DNA of 64,000 bases from Chthonomonadales bacterium (GCA_037443035.1 JBBIPC010000008.1:64001-128000), one strand, 5' to 3'; shown: positions 1,328-64,000, counted from the stretch's first letter. Notes: generated by a model not told the origin, from the sequence alone. A program made the numbers and translations.

Positions 1328-3313
1328 TCATGGCCAGAATGCGTAGGTGGGCATGTCCAGCACAATACCCACGATGGTCCACATACTGCCAATGATACAC
1401 TCACCGAGAATGACGCCGAGGAACAGGGGCAGCCAGTGTCGGTAGGCCTTTAGTCCTCCGTACCGGAGAATCACCAGTTTCAGTATCCAGGCAACCATGA
1501 GCGGTAGCCACAGGAGCGATAGGGACCATGAGCCGGATACCGCATACCCCACTGGGTGGAAGGGGAACCAGCTCAATCGGAGACGGAGCATGTTCAGCAC
1601 GAGGGTCAGGAGGAATCCAGCCGCGATGGCCAGGCGCGTGTTGAACTGCTGTTGCGGTGGTGCGGGAGACCGGACCCAGCCGCTCATGCGGTTCCAAGGC
1701 TCGCTACCAAAAATGAGGTTCACGTTGGGGGGCGCGATCTTCTCTGCGGCGCCGACCTGGTAGTTCTGGTGCAGCATGGCCCAGAACGCACTCAACGCGC
1801 CGAACGCGAGGGCGAGCAGCATGGCCCAAAACAAAGGCTGGTAGCGTCCGCCAAGTCGCTCCGCCATCTTGAATCCCTCCAGTTGGATGGGCATAGGATG
1901 AGAGCGATAGGCCCGATTGAACCCGTAGAACATGGAGAACATTGCCAGATCGGGCCGCGAGATCTGATTCGATTGGGTCACTGCCGGGATTATGCTGTCC
2001 GGACCGGCCATGTGGAGGTCATGCGCCGGCGGGCCTAGTTCCGCACGCATGCGAGTAATGGCGATGGCCAGCACGAAGTAGATGGCGAAGAAGGCGAAGA
2101 TCATCCCAGGCGTCATGCGGCACGCAACGCAGAACGCGTAGATGGCACCGGAACCGAGCACAAGACCAGCAAACGCCACGCGGTAAGGAAGCGGTTCTTG
2201 GGCATCCTGAAGGTCTACTCTCGGTCTCAACAGGTTCTGCCAGATACGCACGAAGTGCGCACGGCTTACGTATAGAGCGAAGACCGCCAGTCCCACGTAT
2301 GCACCGAACTGCTGGGCTTCCGGGTAGGGAAAGCCCGGAATGTTGCCATATCCAAAGGCTGCCGTCGCAATCCGCTCGGCACGCCAGAACCATGCGAAGA
2401 ACCACACAGAGAAGAGCAAATCAACCGGAAGCAACATGCCTAGGGCAACGCCGAAGGGATAGATGGCGATGGGCGTCCAACCCATGGCGTTCCAGGGAGG
2501 CGATGTAATGAACTGGTTCAGGTCCTGCATGGCGCCGAACCGTTTCAGGGGCAGTGCGGGGAGCGACGGATAGAGGTATGCAATGCCGTTCCAGACCTCC
2601 AGGACCGCTGCGATCGCGACACCGGACCAGAAGAGCCGGTTCCTGAACAGCTCGGTCCTCTCGTTCACCATCTCCAGCGGTAGTGCAACGAGCGGGTACG
2701 ACAGGCGCTCGCTCTCGGTCCATTGTCGCCGCAGTAGAGTGTTGATGCAGAGCATCATGAAACCGAGTAGCGTGAGAAACCCTGACCAGACCAGCACGGG
2801 ACCGAGCCACGCGCGGATGTTCCTTGCGACGTAGAATGTATTGGTTCCTTCGTAGAACTCCTTGAGAGCCTGCTGGTCGGAAACGGATAGCCACTTCGGA
2901 ATGTACGGGATGATATCCGTGAGCCAGTTGTTCTCCGGACGTGCGTAGAAATGGGCATGGGAGAGGATCGGGGTCAGGACCTCGATCATGTCGTGGCCGG
3001 CAATGGCCGAACCGAGAGCCAGCATGATATACAGCGTAATGAGTTCAGGTGGGGTGAGGGCAAGAGGACGCCAGATCTTGCGAGCAAGGGAGTTCACCGC
3101 CAGCAGCACGGCGAGCAAGAAGACGACATTGAAGAAGAGGGAGATCGTCGTCGGATGGCCGGCGTAGCGTACAACCTCCATGCGCGTTACCCAGAACGCG
3201 TTGATGGGCAGGAGGAGAAGTGCGATGAGTATGACGCGCGGAGTCACCATCCGAACACGTGTAGTGCGTCGTGCTGGCACGTTCGTGTCGGAGAAGCTGG
3301 GTTGTATCTGCAA
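1328..3313 (-). CDS. DUF6785/DUF6784-like polytopic membrane protein (putative OPT-like transporter)
   Basis: 661 aa with about 15-17 hydrophobic segments. Contains QWTESERLSYPL, WFPFHPVGYA and LFLGVILGE, which I recall as typical of this family. Start codon uncertain. Confidence 0.7.
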   Translation of the reverse strand: MQIQPSFSDTNVPARRTTRVRMVTPRVILIALLLLPINAFWVTRMEVVRYAGHPTTISLFFNVVFLLAVLLAVNSLARKIWRPLALTPPELITLYIMLALGSAIAGHDMIEVLTPILSHAHFYARPENNWLTDIIPYIPKWLSVSDQQALKEFYEGTNTFYVARNIRAWLGPVLVWSGFLTLLGFMMLCINTLLRRQWTESERLSYPLVALPLEMVNERTELFRNRLFWSGVAIAAVLEVWNGIAYLYPSLPALPLKRFGAMQDLNQFITSPPWNAMGWTPIAIYPFGVALGMLLPVDLLFSVWFFAWFWRAERIATAAFGYGNIPGFPYPEAQQFGAYVGLAVFALYVSRAHFVRIWQNLLRPRVDLQDAQEPLPYRVAFAGLVLGSGAIYAFCVACRMTPGMIFAFFAIYFVLAIAITRMRAELGPPAHDLHMAGPDSIIPAVTQSNQISRPDLAMFSMFYGFNRAYRSHPMPIQLEGFKMAERLGGRYQPLFWAMLLALAFGALSAFWAMLHQNYQVGAAEKIAPPNVNLIFGSEPWNRMSGWVRSPAPPQQQFNTRLAIAAGFLLTLVLNMLRLRLSWFPFHPVGYAVSGSWSLSLLWLPLMVAWILKLVILRYGGLKAYRHWLPLFLGVILGECIIGSMWTIVGIVLDMPTYAFWP

Positions 3314-46077: not shown

Positions 46078-46116
46078 GATGTCATATTAGTGCTGTATCG
46101 AGGAGGTGCATCAGGC

Positions 46117-48300: not shown

Positions 48301-48301
48301 A

Positions 48302-49297
48302 ATGTCTTGGGATGCTGCAGTAGAAGACCTCTTCCGAGCAGTTCTTGGGGCGCTCTGCCTGACGTTGGCAGGGATGGCCTCGAGCGCGCCTGTGATGAAG
48401 GCCCAAGTGGCCGCGGACGGGCAGGTGGACATCCAGGAGAATGGCAAGCCGGTCTTGCGCTACAACTACCGGACCGTCGAGCCAGGGGAACGCCTGAAGG
48501 AAATCGCGCAGGCGAATCTTATCTACGCACGTGCACGCAGTGACTACATTCATCCGCTCTACGGCTTCCATGGTGAGGAGCTGACGAAGGACCTACCGGT
48601 GGACCATCCCCATCACAGGGGTATCTACTGGGCGTGGCCGGAGACCAAGTACGGTGAGGAAATGGGCGATCTCCACGCTCTGCAGCGCGTCTTCGCTCGT
48701 CCGACGGGCCGAATCCGCGTTCGGAGCGGGGCCGACTACGCCGAGATCGTGGCCGAGAACCAGTGGATGTGGGATGACAAGGAACCCATTGTGCACGAGA
48801 CCGCAACGATCCGTGCATATCGTTCCGGTAGGGCAGGCCGCTTCGTTGACCTGGTCTTCCGGATCAAAGCACTGAAGCCTGGCGTCAGTCTTGCCCGACG
48901 CGGCACGAATGCGTATGGTGGGCTGAACATGCGGATGAACGCAGTCCAGAACCAGGAGATTGTCTTCCACACGGACCCACCGCAGTCAGCGTCGCGTCGA
49001 GCATGGGCCTACCTTGCCGGCACGTTCGCAGGCGGGAGTGAACCGACGGCGGTGGTCGTCATGCAGCATCCCGGAAACCCCGACTACCCGGGAGACTGGG
49101 TGAAGTTTCCTGAGCTGAACTGGTACCAGCCCACGTTCCCGGCCGCCAACACACGCTACTCGCTCGAGCCGGGCAAGCCGCTGGTACTCCGTTACCGTCT
49201 CTGGATCCGTCCAGGTGGTGCGCCCGCCGAGTCCGCATGCAACGCCGCATGGGAGGATTTCGCCAGCAACCGTGCGCCCAGGGCTGTCGTGCCCTGA
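48302..49297 (+). CDS. DUF6807 ('PmoA family') exported protein
   Basis: YIHPL, DHPHHRGI.WAW, YGGL..R and HP.NP; hydrophobic N-terminus. Confidence 0.8.
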   Translation: MSWDAAVEDLFRAVLGALCLTLAGMASSAPVMKAQVAADGQVDIQENGKPVLRYNYRTVEPGERLKEIAQANLIYARARSDYIHPLYGFHGEELTKDLPVDHPHHRGIYWAWPETKYGEEMGDLHALQRVFARPTGRIRVRSGADYAEIVAENQWMWDDKEPIVHETATIRAYRSGRAGRFVDLVFRIKALKPGVSLARRGTNAYGGLNMRMNAVQNQEIVFHTDPPQSASRRAWAYLAGTFAGGSEPTAVVVMQHPGNPDYPGDWVKFPELNWYQPTFPAANTRYSLEPGKPLVLRYRLWIRPGGAPAESACNAAWEDFASNRAPRAVVP

Positions 49298-49330
49298 GGC
49301 CGACTGGTGCCGGAAGAGGAGGTTCGCGCA

Positions 49331-50695
49331 ATGACCAACACAGCGTCTGAGACCGAGAAAGATCAACCGAGCCGCCGGCAGTTCCTCGCTACCGCAGCGG
49401 CAACCGCTGTCGCCCTGCCTACCGTTGTGCCCGCTTCGGCACTTGGAAAGGATGGCACGGTAGCACCATCCGAACGCATCAGCCTGGGCGCCATCGGCGT
49501 CAACGGCATGGGGCAGGCGAACTTGGCCAACTGCGCCGCGTACCCCGATGTCGTTGTCACCGCTGTATGTGACGTCGCGAAGAGCCGCAGAGACGCCGTC
49601 GTGGAGAGGTACAAGAGCACCGCCAAAGGCTACAACGACTATCGGGAGGTGCTGGCCAGGCCCGATGTGGATGCCGTGATCATCGCCACACCGCCGCACT
49701 GGCATGCGCTCATGGCCATCGAGGCATGTCGAGCAGGCAAGGACATCTACGTCCAGAAGCCCATGACGCTCTATCCCGACGAGACCCTCGCCGTCCGGAA
49801 CGCGGTCAACAAGCACAAGAGGGTGAGTCAGGTCGGGACACAGGTGCACGCGTCCGAGAATTACCGCCGCGTGGTGGAGTGGATAAGGTCAGGTAAGCTG
49901 GGTCGCATCAGCGTGGTACGGACGTTCAATGTCATGAATCAGGGGCCGGACGGAATCGGCTATGCCCCGAAGGAGGATCCACCGCCTGGAGTGGACTGGG
50001 AGATGTGGTGCGGACCTGCTCCACTCTGTCCCTTCAACCGGCTGCTGTTCGCCGACGCATACTACCATTGTTCCTTCTTCGCGTACAGTGGTGGCTGGAC
50101 CCCGGGGATGGCGCCTCATATCATCGACCTGCCTGTGTGGGCGCTGGATCTGGGCGTTCCCCTGGTGACCTCGTGCACAGGTGGACGCTATGTCATCAAG
50201 GGCGACGGGGATGCTCCGGACACGCAGGAGGTGACGTGGTGGTACCCCGGTCTGACCATGACCTGGAGCATGTCCTGCTGCAACAGCTTCGCTTTCGACT
50301 TCGGAAGAGGGACGCCGGCGCGTCGGTTGGGAATCTACTTCCATGGGCTGCGCGGCACGCTCATCGCTGATTACGGCCGGTGCGAAGTGGTGCCCGAAGG
50401 AGATCTGCTGACGGATAGCGCAGCGCCTCCGAAGAGCATTCCGCCGTCACCTGGGCACGAGAGGGAGTGGCTGGACTGCATCAAGACCCGCCAGGAACCG
50501 AGCTGCAGCGTGAACTACCACTGGAAAGTGGATCTGCCCCTGACCCTGGCGAACGTAGCATACCGCCTTGGCCGAAATGTGAGATTCGATCCGAAGACAG
50601 AACGCATCGTGGGGGATGCGGAAGCCGTGAAGCTGGCGCGTCCGGCCTACCGCTCGCCATGGAAGTTCCCCGTCGAATACCTTAGGAAGGCGTGA
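49331..50695 (+). CDS. Tat-exported Gfo/Idh/MocA oxidoreductase
   Basis: SRRQFL Tat signal; ATPPHWH, KDIYVQKP (Q in place of the usual E) and HIID. Confidence 0.9.
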   Translation: MTNTASETEKDQPSRRQFLATAAATAVALPTVVPASALGKDGTVAPSERISLGAIGVNGMGQANLANCAAYPDVVVTAVCDVAKSRRDAVVERYKSTAKGYNDYREVLARPDVDAVIIATPPHWHALMAIEACRAGKDIYVQKPMTLYPDETLAVRNAVNKHKRVSQVGTQVHASENYRRVVEWIRSGKLGRISVVRTFNVMNQGPDGIGYAPKEDPPPGVDWEMWCGPAPLCPFNRLLFADAYYHCSFFAYSGGWTPGMAPHIIDLPVWALDLGVPLVTSCTGGRYVIKGDGDAPDTQEVTWWYPGLTMTWSMSCCNSFAFDFGRGTPARRLGIYFHGLRGTLIADYGRCEVVPEGDLLTDSAAPPKSIPPSPGHEREWLDCIKTRQEPSCSVNYHWKVDLPLTLANVAYRLGRNVRFDPKTERIVGDAEAVKLARPAYRSPWKFPVEYLRKA

Positions 50696-50718: not shown

Positions 50719-51474
50719 TTAGTGGCCGGCCTCGCTCTCGCCCGCGACCTCCATCTCGCCGACCTTGATGGCAATGTCGGCACGTTCTTCGATCTTGGCG
50801 ATCTGACCGTCCCGTATCCAAACAATCCGATCTGAAACGTCGAGCATCTTGAGGTCGTGAGTGGCCGAGATAATAGTCACGCCCTGCTCACGGTTCAGGC
50901 GTTTCAGCAGTTCGATGATCTCTTTTCCGGTGTTCAGGTCGAGGTTGCCAGTGGGCTCGTCTGCGAGGATGATGGAGGGGTTATTGGCCAGCGCGCGAGC
51001 TATGGCGACACGCTGCTGCTGGCCACCAGATAGCTCGGATGGCTTGTGATGCAGGCGCTCCCCGAGTCCGACCAGGTTGAGCAGCTCGATGCCGCGCTCG
51101 ATCCCCTCGTCTGTGCTCATGCCTGCGAAAACGGTGGGAAGCGTCACGTTCTCGAGGGCCGTCATGACCGGGATGAGGTTGAACGTCTGGAAGATGTAAC
51201 CGATGGTGTGGCACCGGAGGTAGGCGAGCTCTTGCGCATCGAGCTGGGCCATGTCCACGTCGTTGATGAAGACGCTGCCTGACGTCGGCTTGTCGAGACC
51301 GCCGATGGCGTTGAAGAGGGTGGACTTGCCCGACCCGGAGGGACCCATGATGGAAATGTACTCGCCGCGGTACACGTCCAGGTTGATGCCGTTGAGCGCT
51401 TTGAGTACCTGGTCGCCCATGGTGTACTCTTTGACGAGGTCCTTCGTGCGTACGACGTATTCGTTAGCGGCCAT
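50719..51474 (-). CDS. LolD/MacB-type ABC transporter ATPase
   Basis: [24 protein letters not shown] and ADEPTGNLD. Confidence 0.95.
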
Positions 51475-51489
51475 TTCGTCGAGCCCTTT

Positions 51490-52215
51490 CTAGATCTCTA
51501 CACGGAGCGCTGCAGCAGGCGGCATCTCCGCCGCTTTGATAGCGGGAAGGATGGTGGCGACAAACGTCAATACGGTGCCAAGGGATACCGACAGGATAAG
51601 GAGCTGCAGACTGGCCAGCCAGAAAGCCCCCCCGAACACCTCGATACCGTCGGTAACTAGACGCACGAGGGAGATGACCGCCCATCCTACGACGAAGCCC
51701 ATGACAGACGCTATGAGCCCAAGGAAACATGCCTCGATGAAGAACAACTTCACGATGAGACTGTCGAGCGCACCTAGACACTTCATCGTGCCGATCTCCT
51801 TATAGCGCTCGGTGACTGACATGAGCATAGCGTTCGTGATGCCCACCGTGCAGACGATGAGTGCCATGATGGAGAGCCACTTCAGCCGCATTTCCGAGCT
51901 GCGCCGGTCTGCTTCATCGGCTTCGAGCGAGTTCACTTGGCGAACGTCCTCGGCCGACGGCTTCAGGGTACCTGCCGCGATGGCTTCCTTCTTCTGTAGA
52001 ATGATGCCTCGCTGAATGCGCGTGAACTCGCCCGACATACGGACCGACGTGAAAAAGGCAATGCCAAGGAGAATGCCGGCTGCCGTAATCAGGGAGCGCC
52101 AGAAGCGTATCTTGATGCTCTTGAACGCGATCTCCACAGCCTTGGCGAACGGCAACTGTATCTGCCGCTTCACCTCTGCCCCCGAGGCTCCTTGTCTCGA
52201 GTCACGGACGCTCAT
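51490..52215 (-). CDS. Short FtsX-like permease
   Basis: RSLITAAGI.LGIA, GITNAMLMSVTERYKEIGTMKCLGA and PA.KAA.MPP..ALR. Confidence 0.88.
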   Translation of the reverse strand: MSVRDSRQGASGAEVKRQIQLPFAKAVEIAFKSIKIRFWRSLITAAGILLGIAFFTSVRMSGEFTRIQRGIILQKKEAIAAGTLKPSAEDVRQVNSLEADEADRRSSEMRLKWLSIMALIVCTVGITNAMLMSVTERYKEIGTMKCLGALDSLIVKLFFIEACFLGLIASVMGFVVGWAVISLVRLVTDGIEVFGGAFWLASLQLLILSVSLGTVLTFVATILPAIKAAEMPPAAALRVEI

Positions 52216-52643
52216 TTCTGAACTCCCTTTCGCTCCACGAAGCCGATGAATCGACGCTCGGCCAGCGTCTGCAGGTACCGCGCTACAGAAGCTTCCACCT
52301 CGGCACGGTTCATCTTGTACTCCTTTATCATGGCACGAACAATGGCCTCGACGGTGTGATCACCATCGCATAGGCGCCACACGAACGTTCCGACTTCGTC
52401 CAGCCGAACCTTGCGAGCCTCCGGCAGGTGCACCAGAACGGCCACAATGCGTGCCACACGGTCTTTCCTGTACGGTATAGTCAGTTCGGCCTCGCCACCC
52501 TGGATTTCCTGCCACTCGATGGCGCTGTTTCGGATGGGTCGGAGACGCAGCAGAGCCTGACGGTCGCCATGCGGCGCACGCCGTACGAAGGGCAAATAGC
52601 GCGCCGCGAGCCACTCCAGGCGCTGACTCAGTGACATTCGCAT
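52212..52643 (-). CDS. PqqD/RRE-like protein
   Basis: LDEVGTFVWRLCDG.HTV..I, and YLQTLAERRFI, a PqqD-type winged helix. Probable start is 52643 or 52637. Confidence 0.78.
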   Translation of the reverse strand: MRMSLSQRLEWLAARYLPFVRRAPHGDRQALLRLRPIRNSAIEWQEIQGGEAELTIPYRKDRVARIVAVLVHLPEARKVRLDEVGTFVWRLCDGDHTVEAIVRAMIKEYKMNRAEVEASVARYLQTLAERRFIGFVERKGVQK

Positions 52644-53629
52644 CGTGTGACGAGATCTCCGAGAATGCTCTGCTTGCCGCGTGGCAGCCAGGTCTGCACG
52701 GCGTAGAGCTTGTTCGTCTCCGAACACTCCCACGCACATGCTTCATATACGGTTGCAGGTCGCAACGTCGGCAACGCGTCTCGAACAGCGACGATCCGTC
52801 CGAGTAAACTACGCACGGCGCCTCGTGCAACAACGCCGTCGTGCTCGTTCAAGACGGCATCGGAGTAGGCGGGACGGTAGCGATCAGCACTTGCCGTTGT
52901 CGCCAGCCATTCGCGCAACGTGAATCTCTTGCGCGCCAGGTTCGCAAGACCCCAACGCTCGATGAGTATCCGTCCTGCGCCGGGCTGGTGGAACCCCAGT
53001 TTCAGGTAGCCAGACATGAATTGATAGGTTTCGAGACGGAACACCTCCGGCACGGCTGCCACCAGATCGAATGCCGCCCACACGCACCACCCGTCTTCGG
53101 CATGGTCTCGTATGTCACTGAAAACGGCAGCGGCTGTGTCGGTGACAGGATCCCTGGGCTGACCTACTACCTGGGCGATCACGGTCCGTTGGCAGACCTT
53201 ACAGAACCAGATCTTCCCTTGGCCTTGGCCTCCGCCTGTCCAGGAGAAGTGATGCGCGATGCGGGTTCCATCGGCCTCCGTAGTCTCCGGCTTGATCTTG
53301 GAGGAAAAAGGCTGGCCTGACCTCCGCGCCCTCTTCGCGGTGTCTTTCAGGTAGGCGTCGAGCAACGTCCGCAGGTCGGGTGGAGTGGTAGGAGCGGGTG
53401 GTGTCTTTCGCACGATGCGTATGGCACGTGCCGCCCATCCTGCGACCGTACGAGGCCGTGATGACGCCAGCGGATCGGTCCACTTGACCTGCAGGAACAT
53501 GGTCCCGGGGGAGTCGACCTTGAGGTAGCCATCCGAGCGATCCGCCGATACTCCTGACACGTTCCAGTCACCAGGTACCAGGAGGCGAATACCATCCCAA
53601 CCGATGACAGCCCGCTCTGTTCGACCCAT
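52628..53629 (-). CDS. Hypothetical protein with two internal repeats
   Basis: Tightly packed within the operon; the two halves share GYLK, W-x-C and a terminal His. Confidence 0.75.
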   Translation of the reverse strand: MGRTERAVIGWDGIRLLVPGDWNVSGVSADRSDGYLKVDSPGTMFLQVKWTDPLASSRPRTVAGWAARAIRIVRKTPPAPTTPPDLRTLLDAYLKDTAKRARRSGQPFSSKIKPETTEADGTRIAHHFSWTGGGQGQGKIWFCKVCQRTVIAQVVGQPRDPVTDTAAAVFSDIRDHAEDGWCVWAAFDLVAAVPEVFRLETYQFMSGYLKLGFHQPGAGRILIERWGLANLARKRFTLREWLATTASADRYRPAYSDAVLNEHDGVVARGAVRSLLGRIVAVRDALPTLRPATVYEACAWECSETNKLYAVQTWLPRGKQSILGDLVTRCECH

Positions 53630-53637
53630 GTCTACTG

Positions 53638-54216
53638 CTACCCGCCGATGTCGCTGGATGAGGATCGTGGCGAGGGATTGTCCAACTTCACACGGGCGCT
53701 GCCGTCCGCATAGCCGATCCAGTTTCCTCGCGCATATCCGCTCTTGGCTCTACTTCGTGTGACATGCCTGCCCGGACGTGGCAGCTCCGAAGGACTACCC
53801 GCAGCATTGTGCTGGCTTGTGTCGCTGTCGAAGACGACCGGCGTCTGCTCGAGACGGTCTATATGGTCGCGGGACTTGGCGGAGACCTGGCGGTTCATGG
53901 CGTAGCCCCAGGTGTCCTTCTGCAGATCCTTCCAGGCTGGACATCGGCGATATCGCGGTTCGACGTAAGGGGCGATGGCCGTTTCCCACTGGCTTGCAGG
54001 CGCATACATGGACTCGTAGTCGTCGGCGTACAGGTTGAAGGCCCGCGCGAGCATGTGCATATTCCGGCGGCATTCCACCGACTCTCCGAGCTCACGGATG
54101 GGACCGAGATAACGACCCAACATCCACATCACGACATAGCCAAGCACAACAGCGACGCCGGCTGCGGCAAACGCCCTGAGCAACCACGGACGACTTGCGC
54201 GCTCATCGAGGCGCAT
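53638..54216 (-). CDS. H-X9-DG-like (DUF1559-like) membrane-anchored protein
   Basis: One TM segment, C..NM..L..A..LYADD, CP, GYAMN and GRH...GN.IGYADG; probable start 54216. Confidence 0.7.
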   Translation of the reverse strand: MRLDERASRPWLLRAFAAAGVAVVLGYVVMWMLGRYLGPIRELGESVECRRNMHMLARAFNLYADDYESMYAPASQWETAIAPYVEPRYRRCPAWKDLQKDTWGYAMNRQVSAKSRDHIDRLEQTPVVFDSDTSQHNAAGSPSELPRPGRHVTRSRAKSGYARGNWIGYADGSARVKLDNPSPRSSSSDIGG

Positions 54217-54274
54217 CGGCGCTCGCGTCTCCAGGCGGCAACAGGATTCGATCCATGGCTCCGCCCGGTATGGC

Positions 54275-55075
54275 CTACTTGGCCGCGATAGGCCCGGAAT
54301 GGCCGTCCGCGTAGACCGCGTAGTTGGTACCTTCGTGGCGACCCGGCACAGGCAGAGTATGTAGACCGCCGTGCGCATTGGGGCCTGGCAATGTGGAGTC
54401 GAAGAATAGGGGTGTACTGCTGGGACTCGGTACCTCCTGCACGCTCTTGCCGCCCAGTGTCTCGTTCATCGCATAACCGTGCCCATCATCGCCCGCGGCT
54501 GGACAATGCAGGTACTTGCGGTCGGATACAGTCTCTTGCAGTGCTTCTTCCCAACGGTCCGCAGGCGGCAGTTTCCCGTCCCAACTATCCGCGTAAAGCA
54601 TGGCGGCCGTGTAGAGTTTCTCTAGGTGTTCTGGACAGCTAGCGCTACTGGTCGTCTGTCGAGCTGGCGCAGGTCGCAACTGTCGGATCAGGCCCACCAC
54701 CGGTTGCAGATCGCGTCCCGACCAGACTGCCCCGGCCACCACCAGCACGGTTCCCAGCAGAATCGGCCATCGTCCGCCGTAGGCGAAGAGGCTGCCGGCA
54801 AGCAGGCTCGCGCAAATCGCCGGGAGCAGGAGGCTCAGAGGCCCGAGCCCGACCTGAGTCCCGCCGATACTCAGCTCCTTGCCCGATACCAGACTGATTC
54901 CCGCACCCCAGAGAACCGCTGCGACGATGCCTACAACGAGTGCACTTCGCCCGGCGCGACGGCTTCCCAACCACGCCGCCAGGACGTGGCCCACGATCGG
55001 CAGCGGTGCGAGGATCACGGATGCGACCAGCGTCAGCAGCAATGCTAGGGGTAGGTTGCCACGCTCTTTCTGCAT
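54275..55075 (-). CDS. H-X9-DG-CTERM domain protein with a multi-TM N-terminus
   Basis: Exact H-EGTNYAVYA-DG motif; LYADSWDG.LP, CPA and GYAMN. ATG 55075 abuts the upstream stop. Confidence 0.75.
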   Translation of the reverse strand: MQKERGNLPLALLLTLVASVILAPLPIVGHVLAAWLGSRRAGRSALVVGIVAAVLWGAGISLVSGKELSIGGTQVGLGPLSLLLPAICASLLAGSLFAYGGRWPILLGTVLVVAGAVWSGRDLQPVVGLIRQLRPAPARQTTSSASCPEHLEKLYTAAMLYADSWDGKLPPADRWEEALQETVSDRKYLHCPAAGDDGHGYAMNETLGGKSVQEVPSPSSTPLFFDSTLPGPNAHGGLHTLPVPGRHEGTNYAVYADGHSGPIAAK

Positions 55076-57111
55076 CAGAACGGCAGGTAGTTCACGGACT
55101 TGGCAATGAGCGACAGAGCAATGGCAGCCATGGCGATGAGACCTGTGCCGCAGGCGAACCCAGCCAGCAGGACCGGAGCGTACATGCGCCACTGATCCAT
55201 TCCGAATCGCTTGGCGAAGTACCGCCTGCCTAGCCATGCACCGAAGAAGGTAGGGATTATATCAGCCGGCCATGCACCAACGCCTCCAACCATGCCGTAG
55301 TAGAACAGCGCTGGTACTTTGGCGAGGGAAAGAATGCCATACAATCCAAGACCCGCGAGAATGCCCGCTCCTATGCGCGTCATATTGATACCTTCCAGTA
55401 CCCACTTGGGGCCGTCTGGCTTGTTGATCGTCTGGAACATGGCCTGGAATGTGGCGGCAAGGGGCCAGAAGCGCTGCGCGTAGGGATGTTGCGACGACGG
55501 AATGGCGCTCGTATGCCAGAAGAACGCCCAGAAGACGAAGGATGCGGTCAGGAAGATCGGCAGCACGAGGAACTCCACCTTGACGACGCTCGTGAACTTC
55601 GTGCCGGTCAGCTCTACTTCCCGGAACCGCTGCGCCAGCGGCCCGTAGTCCGCGAGCGGAATGGGGGCATACCAGATGTCCACATGAGGGTAGCCGCTCT
55701 TCATGATGGATGCTTCTCGGAGGAACGGGAAGGAGACTCCACTGCCAGTCAGCCCCATCATTCGGGCACTAATAAAGGAGTTGATGGGTGTCCAGATCAG
55801 GCCGAAGAAGATGAGAATAGACCAAGGAAACTGCCCACCGTGACCGTCCACATGGAGCAGGTACTGAGTCAGGCCGATGTAGAAACATGTGATGACGAAC
55901 CAGATGGACAGCGGGATGAGAATGTGGATATCTCCTCTGCCCTTGGGTACTTCGCTGAAGAGACCACGCCCTTTTGTTTCCCTGCGGTACTTGGCCAACG
56001 CTTTCACTACCTGAACAACACCAATCAAGGCAACGGCAAGTTGCAGCCCGATGCCAATAGACATCCAGAACTTGATGTCAGTGATCAGCCTAGTGTTGAT
56101 GGCATCCATGCCGCGCGTCCACCCGTTCGTCGCAGCGGTGCCAAAGGCGCCGAGGCCGTAAAGGATGTTAGGTCCTGGGAATACCTTGCAGAGCAGGCTG
56201 CTGATGAAGCTACCAAGGACGATGGGATACGGAAGGACGAAGCCAACCATCACCTTCCCCAGGTCACCCGATAGGCCAGTCAAAGCGCCAGGCAGTATCG
56301 TTTCCGTGCTGGAGGTCAGATCGAAGAACGGAATCGGGATGAGCTGCATGGCCTTGTTGAAGACCACACCCGTGAAGACCGGGATGCCCACATAGAAGAA
56401 CCCGAAGACAAGACCTACCACAGTGCCAATGGAGAATACGCGCCAGCGCCAGGACTCCTCCTTGCTCGCGGCTTCTGCGAGGGCCGTGGCGCCCGATGCG
56501 GCGACCGGCGCCATGGGGAAGGGCAGCCTCTCCACATCGGAAGTGACGCGGAAGAGGGTGTAGCCCATGCTCATCCAGTTCAAGCGCCCGAGCACCTCGC
56601 CGACGACGAGAAGGAGGATCGGCACGAACCAGTCAGGATGCAAGAATGTCCTTTGGGTCAGAGCTGCAGATCCCGCAGGTGGCACCACCCAGTTCGGGAT
56701 CTCGCTGGAGACCAGTCCTGCCTGTGGAGCCTGGCGGAAGTACTGATTCCAGATAAGATATCCGAACGGTCCCCCGGAGATGCCACGGTCGGCTAGCAGA
56801 AGGCTAGACAGCATGGCAGCGACGTAATAGAGGATGTAGATCTCCTGCCGCTTCATGGGGAGGAACGAGCGCCGCATGACCTCGGAGAAGAGGACGATCG
56901 TCACCCATTCGGCCGCTGCTCCCAGACCCTGCCCTGCGACCAATCCAAGATACAGGGCACCAGGCAACATCACGAAGCCGACGAACAGAGCGCCCACGAT
57001 GGTCTTGCCTGTGAAGCCCTCTTCATAGACGATGGCTTGACCTTCGGCACCTTCTTCGGCCGAAGCCTGTTCTACCGTCGCTCTGGCTCGCGCAATATCA
57101 TCAATGGCCAA
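55075..57111 (-). CDS. OPT-like polytopic membrane protein (putative peptide transporter)
   Basis: About 16 hydrophobic segments; YEEGFT, WVTIVLF.E, DVERLPFPMAPV.ASGA.AL. TTG 57111 has a GGGAGG SD. Confidence 0.7.
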   Translation of the reverse strand: MAIDDIARARATVEQASAEEGAEGQAIVYEEGFTGKTIVGALFVGFVMLPGALYLGLVAGQGLGAAAEWVTIVLFSEVMRRSFLPMKRQEIYILYYVAAMLSSLLLADRGISGGPFGYLIWNQYFRQAPQAGLVSSEIPNWVVPPAGSAALTQRTFLHPDWFVPILLLVVGEVLGRLNWMSMGYTLFRVTSDVERLPFPMAPVAASGATALAEAASKEESWRWRVFSIGTVVGLVFGFFYVGIPVFTGVVFNKAMQLIPIPFFDLTSSTETILPGALTGLSGDLGKVMVGFVLPYPIVLGSFISSLLCKVFPGPNILYGLGAFGTAATNGWTRGMDAINTRLITDIKFWMSIGIGLQLAVALIGVVQVVKALAKYRRETKGRGLFSEVPKGRGDIHILIPLSIWFVITCFYIGLTQYLLHVDGHGGQFPWSILIFFGLIWTPINSFISARMMGLTGSGVSFPFLREASIMKSGYPHVDIWYAPIPLADYGPLAQRFREVELTGTKFTSVVKVEFLVLPIFLTASFVFWAFFWHTSAIPSSQHPYAQRFWPLAATFQAMFQTINKPDGPKWVLEGINMTRIGAGILAGLGLYGILSLAKVPALFYYGMVGGVGAWPADIIPTFFGAWLGRRYFAKRFGMDQWRMYAPVLLAGFACGTGLIAMAAIALSLIAKSVNYLPF

Positions 57112-57186
57112 GCGCTGAGTCCTCCCTCTTGCCGATGTTGCTCCGGCGCTGCGACGCATCACGCCGTAGGTCGCGGTACACCAATG

Positions 57187-60100
57187 TCATTCCGCCGGTT
57201 GAGGTGCAGCTACCGGTACGGTACCGCCCTGGCTGGCCGCCTGCGCTTCCTTGAGATACCGCTCTCGCTCGCCCTGCTTCAATGTCCGCCAGATGAGGAA
57301 CTGCTTGCGCAGGGTGTTCAAGAAGCGGCGGTTGACTCGCTTCCAGTTGGAGATGTCCCCCGACTCCCGATGGATGTTCACGCTGATCTCGAAAACGTCT
57401 GCCATGGTCGTCGGCTTGGTGATGATGGTGAGACGCTGGCTCACACCGAGGTCGAAGGGCGCAAGCCAGGTCATGCATCGAATGCTGTACATGGTACCTT
57501 TGCCAGGCGATGGCTGTCCCAGAGGCGCTGGTAGGTCCACCTCCGTCTCCTCGGTCTCTACGTTCTGTGTGACGAAGTCGCCGATACTGTATTCCTCGTA
57601 GGCAGCGAACCACTCGGCAAGGAAGCCATTGAGCCCCTTGGCCTGATCGCCTGTCACCGAGAACGGCAGGGGGATACTCCACTCGTCGCCTTCAGGCTCC
57701 GGAACCCGCCACGATCTGTCTATTGCTGGCGTCGCTACCTCGGCGGCCTTGCGCGCGGGATAGATGGTGGAGAGGAGCACGACGCCCACCACGACCATGG
57801 TTGTCATCACCGCAGATACCGACGAGAAGTTCAGGTAGAGACCCTGGAATGCGCCTGTAGCGACGAGAATCTTGGTGGTAAGCTGGCCGAGCAGATAGCC
57901 GGCTACAGATCCCAGGATGGCGTACACCATGGCTTCCGCCATGAACAGCATGCCGATATGCGCGGGCGCAAGTCCGATGGAGGAGAAGATGTGGATCTCA
58001 CGCACCCTCTCGAAGACGGAACCAAGCATGGTGTTCAAGACGATCAGCGCTGCAATCAGCACAGGGAAGAACACGAGCTCCAAGCCCTTGCTGGAGGTGG
58101 CCGCGATGGACGAATACCGCTCGATAGTCGGGCGCTGATTGGGGTCCGACGGGATGCGGCCTGCGTACAGGTTCAGGCCGAGGCGATGCATGAGGGGACC
58201 GAGCGTCTCCGAGACCCTCTTGGCGTCGCCAAAGTCAATGGCGATGGAGCGCAGCTCGGCACCGAGGTTTGTCGCCGTCTTGTACGGAACGAAGAAGACC
58301 GCGTCTGGCTCCAGGTGAGTGTACTCGCGAAAACCGGTCTCGCCGCCGCCTCGTCCCTGTTGCGTGAGCTTCTGCATGAGAATGAAGTCCACCGGCGTGA
58401 GCGGTTCGCTGTCCAGGTCGAGAATGCGCTTCAGCTTCTGAATGTCGAAGATACCTATGACGGTGTAGTCCACGCCGGCGTAGGAGACGGTAGCCTTGCC
58501 TACATCCTCTGGCTCGACGCGCAGAGCCGCTGCGATGACGTCGGGCAGGATGACGGCGTACACGTCGCCATCCCGGAACCATCTTCCCGCGATCAGTGCT
58601 TCCTGAGGTCTCGTTACCCGGGCTTCCTCGGGCGTTAGGCCGACGAGCGCTTTGGCGTCGTACTGAGCATCGGCGCGTTTGATGGTAAGGAACGACTGCT
58701 CGCCTAACTGGGTGCCGAAGAACCATGAACGAGGCGCGACCGCGTGGTCCTTCCCGTATTCATCCGCCAATAGGCGATAGGCCGGTTCCTGGAGCTGGTC
58801 CCACATGGCGGTACGGATCATCAGGCCGTTGTAACGTGGTCTGCCGGGCGCCGGGACCTGATTGAACCGCATTACCTGAACAACGGATGTGAAGGACAGG
58901 ACGGTGAAGGTCAGGAGGACCAGCGTGATCGTGGTCAGCACCGTGCGAGCCTTGCGTCTACGCATGTTGGAGATGCCCAGATTGAAGGCCGCCAGAGCCA
59001 CGGATACCCGCCCGATGTCGGCTCGGTGGACGCCTGACGCCTGCTGATTCATCAGCTTGAGCTGTTCCTCGAACTTACCCACGATCATAGCAATCACGAT
59101 GCACGAGAGGGCGCCCATGACGAATGCCAACAGGACAATCACGGGGTTCATCGTGATGTCGAAGGCCGGATGGACCTGTGAGAAGATCCCGAAAATGGCC
59201 AGGAAGAAGATGGCGGCCCAACCGAGCTGTCGCTTCAGGTCGTAGGATCCGAAGAGCAGCCTCTCCAGGAAGTACGCGAAGGGTATGAGAAGCGCCAGAT
59301 AGAAGAGCACTCCCTGCACGACGTCCACGGCGGTCTTCTGAACGTCGGGATATGCCCTCGATGCGTAGCCCCAGGCCGCCCGGCTCTCGGCGTCGAAGCG
59401 TTCCCAATTCAGGTCCTTCTGAGCAGCCTCGGCCCGTCGTATGGACTTCTCCGCCAGACCATGAAGCCGGTTGATTCCTTCATTGATGATGCGGTACTTC
59501 GCAAGCCGCTTGATTCGGAAATCGTTGAGCATCCACATGTCGTGGGCCACATGCAACGCCGTATGGTAGATGGCACCCTCGCGCGCAATCTCCCTGGCAG
59601 GATCGAACTTGTCCAGAGTGATCTTGCCTCGCAGCTCCGCGTCCTGTGCCTGGCTCGGATCGCCGCCAACTAGGTAACCGCGCCCCTCCGGGCGTTCCTT
59701 GTCCGGGTTGATGAGGAGCAACCGCGTAGCACCTGGTCCGGCGCCCATGAGGATCTTCAAGCGAGTACCGGGTTGCGAGAAAATGACGGCCAGGTCCTCG
59801 ACGTAAGATCCCACCAGCCACGGGTCCTGCGGGTCAATGGCATACCCGAACATACGGGGCTCACCATTGGTATCGCCGTCCAGGACGTCAATGCTCACCA
59901 GTGCTCGGAGCGACTGCTGGTCCACGAGGTCGTAGATGGACGTGGGCACGCAGCGGAAGAGGATGATGGGCACCTCCTTGCGTGCCGTCGTCACCTGGAC
60001 ATCCAGCGGCATGAACTTGGCGCCGGTGACACCCAGGTCCGGTGCGTAGTTGATCTGGCCCTTGTCAGGGTTCGGCACGATCCGCCCCGTGGGTTTGCCT

Positions 60101-62172
60101 GTGGCCGGGTCTATCTCAGGGACTTCGTCGCGATAGTCTATGTGGTAGGCTGCTACGCGCGTGACGGCATTGCCGCCATAGGCAGTGAGCGGCGCTACGC
60201 CCCGGAACTCGAAAACGTTTTTCTCCTTGGTCCTGGGGTCATCGTAGACGGCCTGGATCATGTTCCCACGGACACCCATGTAGCTCTTGGTGCGGTTGCG
60301 TATGACCGCGATGGATCCCGCCAGGAGTGGGTCCGCGTAAGCGATGAAACTCCGGCGCGGGTTGTAGAGGTTCAAACGACCGCGCACCGTGGCGAATCCG
60401 CCCTGCAACGCCATGCGAGACCACTTGGAGGGATCCGTGATAGGCATCCGTTGAGCGTTCACGTCACCCGGCTCGTTGGTGTCGCGGGTGATATGGTAGA
60501 AGAGGCACGCCAGGAGTTTGGTCTGGAACGCTACATTGGCGACGTTGACATTATCAGCTGTGTCGAAGGGGGTGTCCACGAGTGCTCTGGCGTCATCCAC
60601 CGAGGCGAACGTAACTCCGTTCCCCTGGGCCATGGTGACGACCTCGGAGTCGAATGCAGGCTTGCCCGGAATGTGGTTGCGCCAGTTCTTTCCGTCCACC
60701 GGGTTCACGCCGTCGGCGAACACCTTCTTCGAGTCGAAGCCTAATGTGTTGCCGATCTTCTCCGCATTCTCACGGCAGACGCGTGCGATGTCCGAGAACC
60801 GCCCCTGAATGTCCTCGCGGAAATCGTAGAACCATCCCTTGTAGAAGATCCCGACGCCACGAGTCTGACTGCTGAGATCGAGGCCTGCCCAGAGATAGAT
60901 GGTGTCGCGCTTCCTCAGGGGCTTGTCGCGCGGCTGCATGTAGAAGAGCACGTTCAAGACCACCATGACGAGCACGAACACTCCGAGCACCCAAGACCCC
61001 GCATTCAACCGCCGTCCGGTAGCAGGATCCGGATGGAGCACACGCGACACGAGCCAGAGCGTCAGAAGGATCAACAGGCCGGTGAGCCACACTGCGTTCT
61101 TCGGCGCATTCTCCTTCGCAACCGCCTTCTCGGCCAGGCTAGGCGGTTCCCACTCGTCAATGTGGTTGTTCAGGAACTCCCGGATGCCCTGGAGGGCCTG
61201 AAAGTGGGCGCTGGTCGCGACGAAATACATCGTTCGCTTTGGCGGGTTGGCCCTGAAGATACGCGCCAGTTCGAGGAGGCCAGCAATGCCACAGGCCGAC
61301 TCGGCACCCGGCGCGAGCGACGGAACGACGGAGATGGAATCGAAATAGCCCTGCACCACAATGATCTGGTCGCGCTGCTTGGGGTCCGTACCCGTGATCT
61401 TGCCGAACACGCAACTGGAGTCGCGGGTCTCCCAGGGCATGTCGCACCGGAGAGTACACTGTGGAGCGTCCTCGCCGGCTGTCGTGGCCAGGATTTCTGG
61501 TGCGTCCTTGCGGTCGAGCCAGAAGCGGGGGATCGAGATGGGAATGGAGATGAACTTGGCCTCGGCCTCACCTCGCATCGTTGTATCGGCGCCTACGAAT
61601 ACGACTGCCTTCGCGCCCAGCCGCGGTGCATTGAGCCACTCCGCACGGCTGTTGAAGTCAACGAGGACGATGGATCCTTCTACCTGCTTACCGTTGAAGT
61701 TACCGAGCCGCCCATCGCCGACGTAGATGAGCTTGCCTGAAAGACCGTTCGGCGGCAGTTGCGATGTGCTGACAAGGTTGGGCCACAGCGGGTAGAGACG
61801 CTTCTTCGTGGCGCCCACTTGGATTTCGGCGCCCTTGTCAATGGGAACGGTGACCCTGAACTTCTCGACCCGGATACTCTCGAGGCCGATCTGACGGAAC
61901 TGCTGCTCGACGTAAGCCGCTGCCTTCGCATCACCCTCGTACCCAGCCACGCGAGAGCCGTAGCCTGCTAGGGTCTGCACAGTCCTCGCGATGTTGTCGG
62001 CGCTTACCATGCCGGCGAGCTTACGGTAGTTGTCCGGATCTTCCGCTGCCCCTTGCGATGCCGTCGCAACCATCAGGCACAAGCAGGAAAGCACCCACAC
62101 TGCGAGGGTGCGCAATGAGACCCGGGTATCAGACATCCGTGCGATCCTTTCCCGATACGGCCGACCAGACAT
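57187..62172 (-). CDS. Giant fusion protein: PA/M28-peptidase-like domain plus MacB/FtsX permease
   Basis: Signal peptide; GSRVAGYEG..AA.YV; YFDSIS...APGA; NMRRRKART.LT; LNTMLGSVFERVREI.IFSSIGL and YPARKAA. Start is 62172 or 62136. Confidence 0.85.
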   Translation of the reverse strand: MSGRPYRERIARMSDTRVSLRTLAVWVLSCLCLMVATASQGAAEDPDNYRKLAGMVSADNIARTVQTLAGYGSRVAGYEGDAKAAAYVEQQFRQIGLESIRVEKFRVTVPIDKGAEIQVGATKKRLYPLWPNLVSTSQLPPNGLSGKLIYVGDGRLGNFNGKQVEGSIVLVDFNSRAEWLNAPRLGAKAVVFVGADTTMRGEAEAKFISIPISIPRFWLDRKDAPEILATTAGEDAPQCTLRCDMPWETRDSSCVFGKITGTDPKQRDQIIVVQGYFDSISVVPSLAPGAESACGIAGLLELARIFRANPPKRTMYFVATSAHFQALQGIREFLNNHIDEWEPPSLAEKAVAKENAPKNAVWLTGLLILLTLWLVSRVLHPDPATGRRLNAGSWVLGVFVLVMVVLNVLFYMQPRDKPLRKRDTIYLWAGLDLSSQTRGVGIFYKGWFYDFREDIQGRFSDIARVCRENAEKIGNTLGFDSKKVFADGVNPVDGKNWRNHIPGKPAFDSEVVTMAQGNGVTFASVDDARALVDTPFDTADNVNVANVAFQTKLLACLFYHITRDTNEPGDVNAQRMPITDPSKWSRMALQGGFATVRGRLNLYNPRRSFIAYADPLLAGSIAVIRNRTKSYMGVRGNMIQAVYDDPRTKEKNVFEFRGVAPLTAYGGNAVTRVAAYHIDYRDEVPEIDPATGKPTGRIVPNPDKGQINYAPDLGVTGAKFMPLDVQVTTARKEVPIILFRCVPTSIYDLVDQQSLRALVSIDVLDGDTNGEPRMFGYAIDPQDPWLVGSYVEDLAVIFSQPGTRLKILMGAGPGATRLLLINPDKERPEGRGYLVGGDPSQAQDAELRGKITLDKFDPAREIAREGAIYHTALHVAHDMWMLNDFRIKRLAKYRIINEGINRLHGLAEKSIRRAEAAQKDLNWERFDAESRAAWGYASRAYPDVQKTAVDVVQGVLFYLALLIPFAYFLERLLFGSYDLKRQLGWAAIFFLAIFGIFSQVHPAFDITMNPVIVLLAFVMGALSCIVIAMIVGKFEEQLKLMNQQASGVHRADIGRVSVALAAFNLGISNMRRRKARTVLTTITLVLLTFTVLSFTSVVQVMRFNQVPAPGRPRYNGLMIRTAMWDQLQEPAYRLLADEYGKDHAVAPRSWFFGTQLGEQSFLTIKRADAQYDAKALVGLTPEEARVTRPQEALIAGRWFRDGDVYAVILPDVIAAALRVEPEDVGKATVSYAGVDYTVIGIFDIQKLKRILDLDSEPLTPVDFILMQKLTQQGRGGGETGFREYTHLEPDAVFFVPYKTATNLGAELRSIAIDFGDAKRVSETLGPLMHRLGLNLYAGRIPSDPNQRPTIERYSSIAATSSKGLELVFFPVLIAALIVLNTMLGSVFERVREIHIFSSIGLAPAHIGMLFMAEAMVYAILGSVAGYLLGQLTTKILVATGAFQGLYLNFSSVSAVMTTMVVVGVVLLSTIYPARKAAEVATPAIDRSWRVPEPEGDEWSIPLPFSVTGDQAKGLNGFLAEWFAAYEEYSIGDFVTQNVETEETEVDLPAPLGQPSPGKGTMYSIRCMTWLAPFDLGVSQRLTIITKPTTMADVFEISVNIHRESGDISNWKRVNRRFLNTLRKQFLIWRTLKQGERERYLKEAQAASQGGTVPVAAPQPAE

Positions 62173-62216
62173 GCCGCCAACCGCGCCTAGCTAGATTGCG
62201 GTAGACCCACGACCGT

Positions 62217-62246
62217 ATCATAACACACGCCTATCACAAAAGGCAA
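62217..62246 (-). promoter_or_regulatory. Sigma70-type promoter of the 8-gene operon
   Basis: Minus strand TTGCCT-N18-TATGAT with an extended -10 TG. Confidence 0.55.
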
Positions 62247-62438: not shown

Positions 62439-62468
62439 TTGACAAACCATATCTAGTGGTGTTATTGT
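62439..62468 (+). promoter_or_regulatory. Sigma70 promoter of nrdR-nrdJ
   Basis: TTGACA (62439-62444)-N18-TATTGT (62463-62468) with an extended -10 TG. Confidence 0.7.
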
Positions 62469-62490
62469 TGAAGACCACTAGATATAGTGT
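62444..62490 (+). promoter_or_regulatory. Two tandem NrdR boxes
   Basis: AAACCATATCTAGTGG (62444-62459) and CCACTAGATATAGTGT (62475-62490) match acaCwAtATaTwGtgt, with starts 31 bp apart. Confidence 0.88.
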
Positions 62491-62512
62491 TCCAGCTCGA
62501 GGCGCTCACAGC

Positions 62513-63031
62513 ATGCGGTGTCCCTATTGCGGTTCAACTGAGGACAAGGTCCTGGACTCCCGCGAGTCCCAGTCGGGAGATGCTGTTCGTAGGCGCCGGG
62601 AGTGCAAGAGCTGCGGCCGGCGCTTCACGACCTTCGAGCAGATCGAAGTGCGCGAGCTATATGTCGTCAAGCGAAGCGGTCGCCGCGAACCGTTCATGCG
62701 GGACAAGGTCCTGCAGGGCATGCGGATTGCGTGCAAGGGCCGGCCGGTCAGCACCGAGACCCTGGAGGAAGCGGCGGCCGATATCGAGCGGATGCTGATG
62801 AATAGGCTGGAGCAAGAAGTTCCGTCTCGAGACATTGGTGACATGGTCATGGAGCGTCTGCGGGTCATCGATCAGGTGGCGTATGTCCGTTTCGCGTCGG
62901 TGTATCGCCAGTTCGAGGATGCCACGCAGTTCCGCGAGATCGTCAACAGGTTGAGGAGGTCCCGGGCGGACCAGAGAGGTTCTAGCAGCAGTCCCACAGC
63001 GTCTGCAGGGGAATCTGGGGAAGAGAGATAG
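62513..63031 (+). CDS. nrdR: Transcriptional repressor NrdR
   Basis: MRCPYC, KVLDSR, RRRRECKSC.RRFTTFE, ATP-cone and VAYVRFASVY. Confidence 0.97.
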   Translation: MRCPYCGSTEDKVLDSRESQSGDAVRRRRECKSCGRRFTTFEQIEVRELYVVKRSGRREPFMRDKVLQGMRIACKGRPVSTETLEEAAADIERMLMNRLEQEVPSRDIGDMVMERLRVIDQVAYVRFASVYRQFEDATQFREIVNRLRRSRADQRGSSSSPTASAGESGEER

Positions 63032-63036
63032 AGACA

Positions 63037-64000
<964 letters not shown>

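Follow-up and report, generated by a model that had tools for sequence, protein, structure and literature searches.

The question raised by this locus is whether eight adjacent genes of a Chthonomonadales bacterium encode one envelope machine and what such a machine would move. The genes (g1 to g8) lie at positions 50719-62136 of the window, by which we mean the whole 64,000-nucleotide stretch that was analysed (GCA_037443035.1 JBBIPC010000008.1:64001-128000); like all features described below, they are on the minus strand. A sequence-only reading had seen eight co-oriented, tightly packed genes behind one promoter. The ORF calls agreed with the packing of this putative operon: with the chosen starts, the gaps from g1 to g8 were 27, -1, 58, 8, -16, -4 and 15 bp, and a TTG start for g2 at 57111, which has a better ribosome site and gives 678 aa, the length of the database entry, makes the g1–g2 gap 75 bp. 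The promoter could not be upheld. Upstream of g1 there is a weak sigma-70-like match with a TG motif (62217..62246) that agrees with the consensus at 9 of 12 positions, not above chance; since six such sites were found where 4.3 were expected, the match alone is no evidence, and promoter and terminator scans of the window gave chance-level results only.

Comparison of loci showed that synteny was kept across phyla and in both bacteria and archaea, and an alignment-based locus search gave no usable conserved stretch. The conserved unit is six genes, not eight: g1 for a giant M28-pseudopeptidase/FtsX protein, g2 for an OPT-fold protein, g5 for a tandem PsbP-fold protein, g6 for a PqqD-like protein, g7 for a mini-FtsX and g8 for a LolD-type ATPase. 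This core was found in 209 of the 251 phylum genomes and also in Desulfobacterota, Poribacteria, Latescibacterota, PVC lineages and archaea. We found no paper on the system in the literature searched, which covered few subscription journals; one search led to papers on DUF1559 or other matters, none naming DUF6785. The earlier suggestion of a machine with no characterised counterpart has held in part, in the form of a conserved, apparently undescribed type VII ABC system with an altered M28 domain and an OPT-fold partner.

The two genes outside the core are g3 (54275..55075; 266 aa, three N-terminal TM helices and an H-X9-DG-type soluble domain) and g4 (53638..54216; 192 aa, one TM helix), paralogues with 36% identity. 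Both had been read as H-X9-DG proteins, and the literal motif is present in g3 only, g4 having a 10-residue insertion. The label 'pilin-like' overstates the case because neither has a prepilin N-methylation signal or a TIGR04294 match. They are mostly a Chthonomonadales insertion, lineage-specific passengers of the system: similar genes were found inside the cluster at 8 of 40 phylum loci and at 4 of 80 loci of a pattern scan, and g3 and g4 occurred together at only two own-family loci among the 40. In this genome TIGR04294 matched 12 times; the eight system-bearing genomes tested from other lineages had no match, and genome G009, which lacks the system, had two. These distributions do not bear out H-X9-DG proteins as cargo. 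We regard it as very improbable that the machine captures and moves H-X9-DG or prepilin-like proteins or a ribosomal peptide; the in-cluster copies, the DUF1559 prepilins within two genes of two DUF6785 loci and the PqqD-like g6 would fit such a role, but no RiPP precursor or maturase was present among the recurring neighbour clusters of at least 90 aa.

The largest protein, g1 (57187..62136; 1649 aa), contains the Pfam domains Peptidase_M28, PA, MacB_PCD and FtsX. Its order is a signal helix, the PA and M28-fold domains, one or more prealbumin-like beta domains (Z 8.0-8.3 in the fold search for that behind the M28 domain), a three-helix bundle, three extra TM helices, which are its most conserved membrane part, the FtsX TMD with a MacB-type extracytoplasmic domain between TM1 and TM2, and a C-terminal cytoplasmic helix-grip (SRPBCC-like) domain, whose profile had no significant match among PDB sequences. 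A model of residues 565-1635 (pLDDT 84.9) matched MacB, LolCDE, HrtBA and YtrF, and the extracytoplasmic/FtsX part resembled MacB with a Foldseek E of 2e-11 and a VIA Z of 13-16. As first read, the peptidase is a pseudo-peptidase: the M28 fold is present and the zinc ligand set is absent. Of H97, D117, E151, E152, D179 and H256, which we take to be the zinc ligands and general base in Vibrio aminopeptidase numbering, 71 aligned g1 proteins kept 6, 62, 1, 0, 53 and 0, respectively, and none retained more than three of the six. His stood in place of E151 in 57 of the 71, and at the former active site one Asp is still invariant and one His nearly so.

These surviving residues, the structural matches to MacB, LolCDE, HrtBA and YtrF and the LysM carried by Poribacteria g1 would be in keeping with a machine that works outward, as type VII ABCs such as LolCDE and YbbAP-type systems do in the parts of the literature consulted; it would extract or flip a lipid-linked glycan, a peptide or a membrane-anchored protein and pass it to the outer M28-like domain, possibly anchoring surface proteins. 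It seems unlikely to us, in that the system is common to diderm bacteria and archaea despite their different envelopes and many DUF6785 copies near catabolic genes would be left unexplained. A likeness of g1 to PIG-S of the GPI transamidase (Z 10.8), which would also suit outward work, was rejected because it is a helical-bundle match: it spans 78 residues, mostly the three-helix bundle, and designed proteins match equally well.

An M28 fold that has lost its zinc ligands is also found in nicalin and nicastrin, on the outer face of membrane complexes. Nicalin ranked second among PDB sequences for the M28 core profile (E 2e-9) and tenth when the PA domain was included, and active aminopeptidases scored as high. 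In a Pfam search with 22 g1 M28 domains, 20 matched M28 and five matched Nicastrin (PF05450) weakly, one above the cut-off. By these scores g1 shows no greater similarity to nicalin than to active aminopeptidases; it differs from nicalin and nicastrin in retaining a PA domain, in its fusion to an ABC TMD and in being prokaryotic. The nicalin match followed by a prealbumin-like domain recalls the nicalin–NOMO pair, which belongs to the ER multipass translocon, and fits a core whose dedicated task is ATP-driven assembly or quality control, by inserting, folding or extracting OPT-fold proteins that would then act alone as proton symporters. We consider an assembly machine rather unlikely: the equal scores of active aminopeptidases and the weak Nicastrin matches count against it and, to our knowledge, an ordinary OPT protein does without such a machine.

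The cytoplasmic protein g5 (52628..53629; 333 aa) is internally duplicated (hhalign 96%, E 2e-9) and its model (pLDDT 95.6) shows a tandem PsbP/Mog1/DcrB fold. Among its Foldseek and VIA matches was SciW (Z 8.8), a chaperone of transmembrane helices, which would suit an assembly machine, as would peptide binding, possible for the PqqD and helix-grip domains; PsbP, Mog1 and DcrB, however, were closer to g5 than SciW. An Atlas search with g5 returned unnamed clusters only. A zinc-bridged g5 was also considered and rejected, its Cys/His motifs being near-invariant within the phylum set and not kept across phyla. The neighbouring g6 (52212..52643; about 143 aa) is a PqqD/RRE-like cytoplasmic protein (PF05402, E 5e-16), and g7 (51490..52215; 241 aa, Pfam FtsX) is a mini-FtsX whose TMD has a short outer loop; it probably provides the ABC with its second TMD. 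The ATPase g8 (50719..51474; 251 aa) is of the LolD/MacB type (ABC_tran; best NCBIfam LolD), with intact Walker A, Q-loop, LSGGQ, Walker B/D-loop and H-switch; the NCBIfam scores of the operon proteins were all below cut-off. No adaptor, TolC or LolA gene was found among the recurring neighbours of the cluster.

The remaining core protein, g2 (55075..57111; about 678 aa), is constant and usually single copy. It had been called an OPT-like 16-TM protein. Membership of the OPT superfamily, to which an Atlas search also pointed, was confirmed through its relatives, since 18 of 44 g2-family members matched PF03169 (best E 1e-17); the number of TM segments was not, the family alignment containing 15 hydrophobic segments. 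The g2 of the window itself matched no Pfam family, PF03169 included, and a search of PDB sequences with the g2 profile gave no significant match and did not find YS1. DUF6785 and the g2 family are full-length homologues (hhalign 98.9%), and the DUF6785 profile PF20581 does not match g2. We propose that DUF6785, a second OPT-fold family encoded outside the eight-gene stretch, is the seventh part of the system; one of about 20 scattered DUF6785 genes lies in the window at 1328..3250 (PF20581, E 1.6e-161 at G000:C8:65751-67244). A complex prediction of g2 with two g1 membrane segments scored 0.30 against a mark of 0.32, without folded controls, and weighs neither way. We gave little weight to two apparent g1–g2 fusions because in locus L038 a stop codon separates the genes, and in locus L039 the single ORF, in which about 70 linker residues join the two, is from one genome and possibly arose by stop loss.

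Profiling against DUF6785 copy number was the most productive hint in the sequence-only reading. Among these 251 phylum genomes, 209 had g2, 201 had g5 and 211 had DUF6785. All 209 genomes with g2 carried DUF6785, 40 had neither, and two had DUF6785 alone (80% and 89% complete). In families of mixed content, g2 and DUF6785 were carried by the same genomes (7/24, 9/13, 10/12, 3/5, 13/14, 1/3 and 1/6). We give no test statistic because kin genomes are not independent. In nine g2-positive genomes g5 was unmatched, and a broader profile recovered it in three of the five retested. A second lineage, the class of genome G252 (61 genomes), has one DUF6785 in 21 genomes, all 21 with g5; four of its 25 g5-positive genomes had no DUF6785 match, which speaks against a shared motor. 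The copy numbers are very different: this genome has one g1, g2, g5 and g6 and 20 DUF6785 matches, of which 18 are full length with a mean identity of 31%, and first-look candidates in other genomes reached about 58. A DUF6785-type gene was also present in 43 of the clustered core loci.

Identical co-loss and a one-to-many ratio are predicted by an assembly machine as well, and co-occurrence does not separate it from a motor because assembly dedicated to DUF6785 gives the same pattern. The archaeal loci argue against it. Five archaeal MAGs contained 3-8 g1 copies each, mostly as DUF6785-g1-g2 triplets, with the small subunits single (g5 in 4/5, g6 in 5/5, mini-FtsX in 4/5); the ATPases numbered one or two and had 61-67% identity to g8. 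In archaea g1 and g2 are thus duplicated alongside each DUF6785, as would be expected of cognate subunits in a fixed stoichiometry more than of an assembly factor that acts catalytically. In 11 archaeal triplets the identities co-varied (g1–g2, rho 0.75; g2–DUF6785, 0.47; g1–DUF6785, 0.31), a pattern also given by shared descent of linked genes.

A peptide or protein substrate was not borne out; the surroundings of the DUF6785 genes point rather to sugars and other solutes of small size. Within two genes of 9 of the 18 DUF6785 loci there was a sugar-type or catabolic family (PfkB, GxGYxYP, BNR, FGGY, sugar-binding protein, ThuA, LacI, nucleoside hydrolase or GH106). The comparison with random genes was made for URO-D only, and URO-D-like genes made up 4 of 69 neighbours where 0.76 were expected; 24 of the 69 had no Pfam family. 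Against an importer, 8 of the 18 loci had no sugar-type or URO-D neighbour, and several lie amid housekeeping genes.

In Desulfobacterota DUF6785 was single copy and in the operon, at the g1–g2 gap, in all three genomes tested. The recurring neighbours of these loci, named by sequence inspection, were cyclic-nucleotide-binding-like, STAS-like and anti-sigma-kinase-like; a single DUF6785 beside signalling-type genes does not suggest sugars in the sulfate reducers. The neighbours would be expected of a sensor in which solutes bound by DUF6785 are reported by the ABC to cytoplasmic partners, by way of g5, g6 or the helix-grip domain. Signalling with no bulk transport is known from FtsEX, as with FtsX–EnvC, and from BceAB-type systems. 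Such a sensor appears quite improbable to us, no kinase or regulator being conserved with the core outside Desulfobacterota.

The analysis established which parts the system has, their folds, how they co-occur and in what copy numbers; physical coupling, direction and substrate we infer: we give an even chance to the core being a type VII ABC motor that serves exchangeable DUF6785 OPT-fold permeases for uptake. Together with the core, the permeases would bring sugars or other small organic solutes into the cell. The FtsX part of g1 and g7 would form the TMD pair, driven by two g8 ATPases, and g2 and one DUF6785 protein would dock on g1, perhaps at the well-conserved extra TM helices. Specificity would be set by DUF6785 because it is the multi-copy, divergent part. 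ATP-driven motion of the FtsX domains would be transmitted to the OPT-fold subunits at their elevator-type core, or would reset them; the dead M28 domain may act as an outer scaffold or gate, like nicastrin and nicalin in their own complexes, and g5, g6 and the helix-grip domain may serve as adaptors on the cytoplasmic side, for the coupling or exchange of subunits.

With MacB, LolCDE, FtsEX, YtrEF, HrtBA and YbbAP-TesA the system shares a LolD-type ATPase, a four-helix FtsX TMD and a MacB-type extracytoplasmic domain, and the proposed asymmetric TMD pair has its parallel in LolCE. It differs from these type VII ABCs in that g7 has no outer domain and the TMD of g1 is fused to an M28 fold, extra TM helices and a cytoplasmic helix-grip domain; adaptor, TolC and LolA genes are missing from the cluster, and constant OPT-fold, PsbP-fold and PqqD partners are present. 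The portions of the literature consulted describe type VII systems in export, extraction or signalling, and we know of no importing member. The gene logic resembles that of ECF transporters of the shared-module type (EcfAA'T with several S-components): a single ATP module goes with many scattered subunits for substrates in certain lineages and with one dedicated subunit in the operon in others, and two ATPase genes occur in some. No EcfT or S-component family was matched in Pfam or NCBIfam; the module here is FtsX-type, with OPT and DUF6785 proteins, and the variable subunit is an OPT-fold protein of 640-700 aa. The machine is best read as ECF-like in logic, not in fold. With the OPT/YSL family (TC 2.A.67), which is known for a 14-16 TM elevator fold and proton-coupled uptake of peptides or metal chelates and of which barley YS1 is an example, it shares the PF03169 match of the g2 family and 13-15 hydrophobic segments in g2 and DUF6785. 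In PMC9691689 YS1, the solved family member, is described as an elevator-like importer; it is a proton-coupled homodimer that needs no ATPase, unlike the ATP-driven system proposed here. The portions seen of that paper and of PMC3061005 mention no ABC partner of YS1.

We put forward only tentatively, at less than an even chance, that this is a new class of primary transporter in bacteria and archaea, in which an FtsX/MacB-type mechanotransducer drives elevator-type OPT-fold carriers, with up to dozens of DUF6785 proteins per motor. Such driving would unite two transporter superfamilies thought to be separate and give type VII ABCs a role in import. It could also be the principal route of uptake still unexplained in Armatimonadota, Latescibacterota, Poribacteria and sugar-using Thermoproteota, and the outer nicalin-like and prealbumin-like domains could retain, in their prokaryotic form, the pseudopeptidase gatekeepers of membrane complexes in eukaryotes. 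A seven-part machine is kept in two domains of life, the ATPase still as similar between them as given above, and DUF6785, which of the uncharacterised membrane families in these genomes is one of the most expanded, gains a testable role. The cluster is present in the cultured sulfate reducers Desulfacinum hydrothermale, Pseudodesulfovibrio karagichevae and Desulfovibrio caledoniensis, and the two of these that were tested each have a single DUF6785, so a direct test is possible.

The sequence-only reading had claimed eight close-packed genes in one orientation, and these are present, on the minus strand with tight spacing, at window positions 50719-62136. The nearest relatives of their products carry the labels Chthonomonadales/Armatimonadota, taken here to be the host's group. 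In order of transcription they are g1 (the M28/FtsX giant), g2 (OPT-fold), g3 and g4 (H-X9-DG-type), g5 (tandem PsbP-fold), g6 (PqqD-like), g7 (mini-FtsX) and g8 (LolD-type ATPase). In Pfam and NCBIfam profiles, g1 matched M28, MacB_PCD and FtsX, g6 PqqD, g7 FtsX and g8 a LolD-like ATPase, all four below the cut-offs of named systems. g1, g2, g5 and g6 are each single copy in the window's genome. g3 and g4 are paralogues of each other; they had been called pilin-like, a description that goes too far, as the prepilin signal is absent from both.

The conserved unit is six genes, g1-g2-g5-g6-g7-g8. We examined 40 loci of the Armatimonadota (the phylum), chosen for long contigs and family spread; this order was found in 26, five of the six genes, rearranged, in one, g1-g2 only in four, and g2 alone within 20 kb in nine. 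Genes like g3/g4 lay inside the cluster in 8 of the 40 loci, seven of these from the window's order. The system does not require the H-X9-DG proteins, which had been put forward as possible cargo. Among 251 phylum genomes, g2 was found in 209, g5 in 201 and both in 200; a broader g5 profile regained a match in three of five retested genomes with g2 but earlier without g5.

Synteny also extends across phyla, as had been proposed for checking. A pattern scan over species-representative genomes (about 1,700 matching stretches estimated, 120 loci returned) gave such loci in Desulfobacterota, Poribacteria, Latescibacterota, Lentisphaeria, Kiritimatiellia, Planctomycetota, Omnitrophota and WS1, and in archaea (Thermofilaceae, Bathyarchaeia, Brockarchaeota and others). 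Among the matches listed, 116 of 120 loci encoded g2. In 80 loci with flanks of 10 kb, a length that cuts off distal genes, g1 was found in 59, among them 35 of the 40 loci of full length; the counts for the other genes were g5 in 29, g6 in 27, g8 in 25, g7 in 14 and g3/g4 in four.

Several variants were seen. In a single case (L039:9022-16488, genome G249) one open frame spans g1 and g2 with a short linker. Clusters of Lentisphaeria, Kiritimatiellia and Planctomycetota (loci L078, L084, L117, L125, L136) carry two g8-like ATPase genes. A 200-aa secreted-looking protein without Pfam match recurs between g2 and g5 in 14 Desulfobacterota loci (L074, L090, L137, L140, L144, L149 and others); close by are ABC genes of 840 aa and genes that resemble those for cyclic-nucleotide-binding, STAS and anti-sigma-kinase proteins.

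Clustering of the remaining ORFs in the pattern-scan loci gave one dominant family (43 loci), identified in three Desulfobacterota genomes as DUF6785, there single copy between g1 and g2. It is homologous to the g2 family over its full length (hhalign 98.9%), and the g2 family is part of the OPT superfamily, with OPT matches in 18 of 44 members. In the window's genome DUF6785 was matched 20 times, always outside the operon and once at window 1328-3250. Profiling against DUF6785, which the sequence-only reading had suggested, revealed co-loss with g2 across the 251 phylum genomes: DUF6785 was found in 211, namely all 209 with g2 and two incomplete genomes, and neither in 40. Inside mixed families the losses match genome by genome when listings are compared by hand. 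In the class of G252 (61 genomes), DUF6785 was found in 21, every one with g5, g5 only in four and neither in 36; in 14 control genomes DUF6785 was not found. Some g2 homologues (P0122, P0126, P0128, P0130, P0139) have inserts of 130-380 residues, all in one loop near position 559, and g2-family members match beta-propeller and FGE-sulfatase-like families.

The ABC core belongs to type VII. In fold searches with a g1 model spanning residues 565-1635, the TMD and outer domain matched MacB, YtrF, LolC and FtsX. With Z about 8, middling by the tool's scale, the first beta domain resembles carboxypeptidase-regulatory/prealbumin-like domains, and the domain at the C-terminus resembles Aha1 and other helix-grip proteins. 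The M28 metal site is lost in 71 of 71 aligned g1 sequences, and the general-base position is His in 57 of them, the same substitution as in the aminopeptidase PDB 2anp, reportedly a nearly inactive mutant. Because conserved acids persist, changed chemistry of this domain is possible. The M28 domain also contains a two-helix membrane hairpin (window about 60890-61090, g1 residues 350-415), missing from most relatives; g1 of Poribacteria (L076:521-8101 and other loci) is 2,400-2,500 aa long, with LysM in the one scanned. The g5 model (pLDDT 95.6) has two PsbP/Mog1/DcrB-fold domains and matches CyanoP (Z 13.1, rmsd 3.0, 140 residues); no signal or TM segment was found in its sequence.

Copy numbers differ between lineages. 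Five archaeal MAGs have 3-8 g1 copies each, mostly in DUF6785-g1-g2 triplets surrounded, by inspection, by sugar-, sulfatase- and URO-D-like enzymes. g5 is single in four of the five, g6 in all five and mini-FtsX in four; there are one or two close ATPases per MAG, with two g8-like genes in four. g5 and g6 are neighbours in two MAGs, and g7 and g8 in three. The whole parts list therefore crosses the domain boundary, and in archaea a putative small-subunit motor, shared within the genome, goes with multiplied membrane modules. In bacteria of the phylum g1 and g2 also belong to the shared part and DUF6785 alone is multiplied; sulfate reducers have one copy of each part. This pattern resembles that of ECF transporters, in which one module is described as used by several S-components (PMC7755397, PMC4820897), yet the system is made of other folds and is not itself ECF. 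Neither is the whole an M28 peptidase or a RiPP cluster. We found no paper on it in a searched set that most subscription journals lie outside, and we suggest, with more doubt than confidence, that it could be an ATP-driven carrier of a new class.

In the window's genome, nine of the 18 DUF6785 genes of full length have sugar-type or catabolic neighbours, the others lying among unrelated genes, and URO-D-like genes are enriched near DUF6785 (4 of 69 neighbours vs 0.76 expected). The solved OPT member YS1 is described as importing its substrate by proton coupling and elevator-like movement (PMC9691689), and other members have been tied to peptidases and peptide uptake (PMC3061005). Because of these neighbours and uptake precedents, import of small solutes is our best reading of the predicted function. 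From genome data alone, ATP may drive the DUF6785 carriers or merely assemble them.

The URO-D family shows a large unexplained expansion in the window's genome (32 matches; window members at 41578-42576 and 44908-46077), and its genes adjoin DUF6785 repeatedly in bacteria and archaea. Beside another DUF6785 gene, at L213:8695-10899 (G000:C9:108694-110898 in the window's genome), ThiF (E1-like), YukD (ubiquitin-like) and a small ORF that is E2-like by eye are possibly a bacterial ubiquitin-like system. Three mutually similar Gfo/Idh/MocA-type oxidoreductases (Tat signal match in the single one scanned) and a DUF6807 gene (window 42714-50695, plus strand) converge on the operon's end. Divergent from the operon, at 62513-64000 on the plus strand, are nrdR (Pfam), which probably starts at 62513, and a gene resembling ribonucleotide reductase that leaves the window; the two tandem palindromes upstream of nrdR (62440-62492) look like NrdR boxes.
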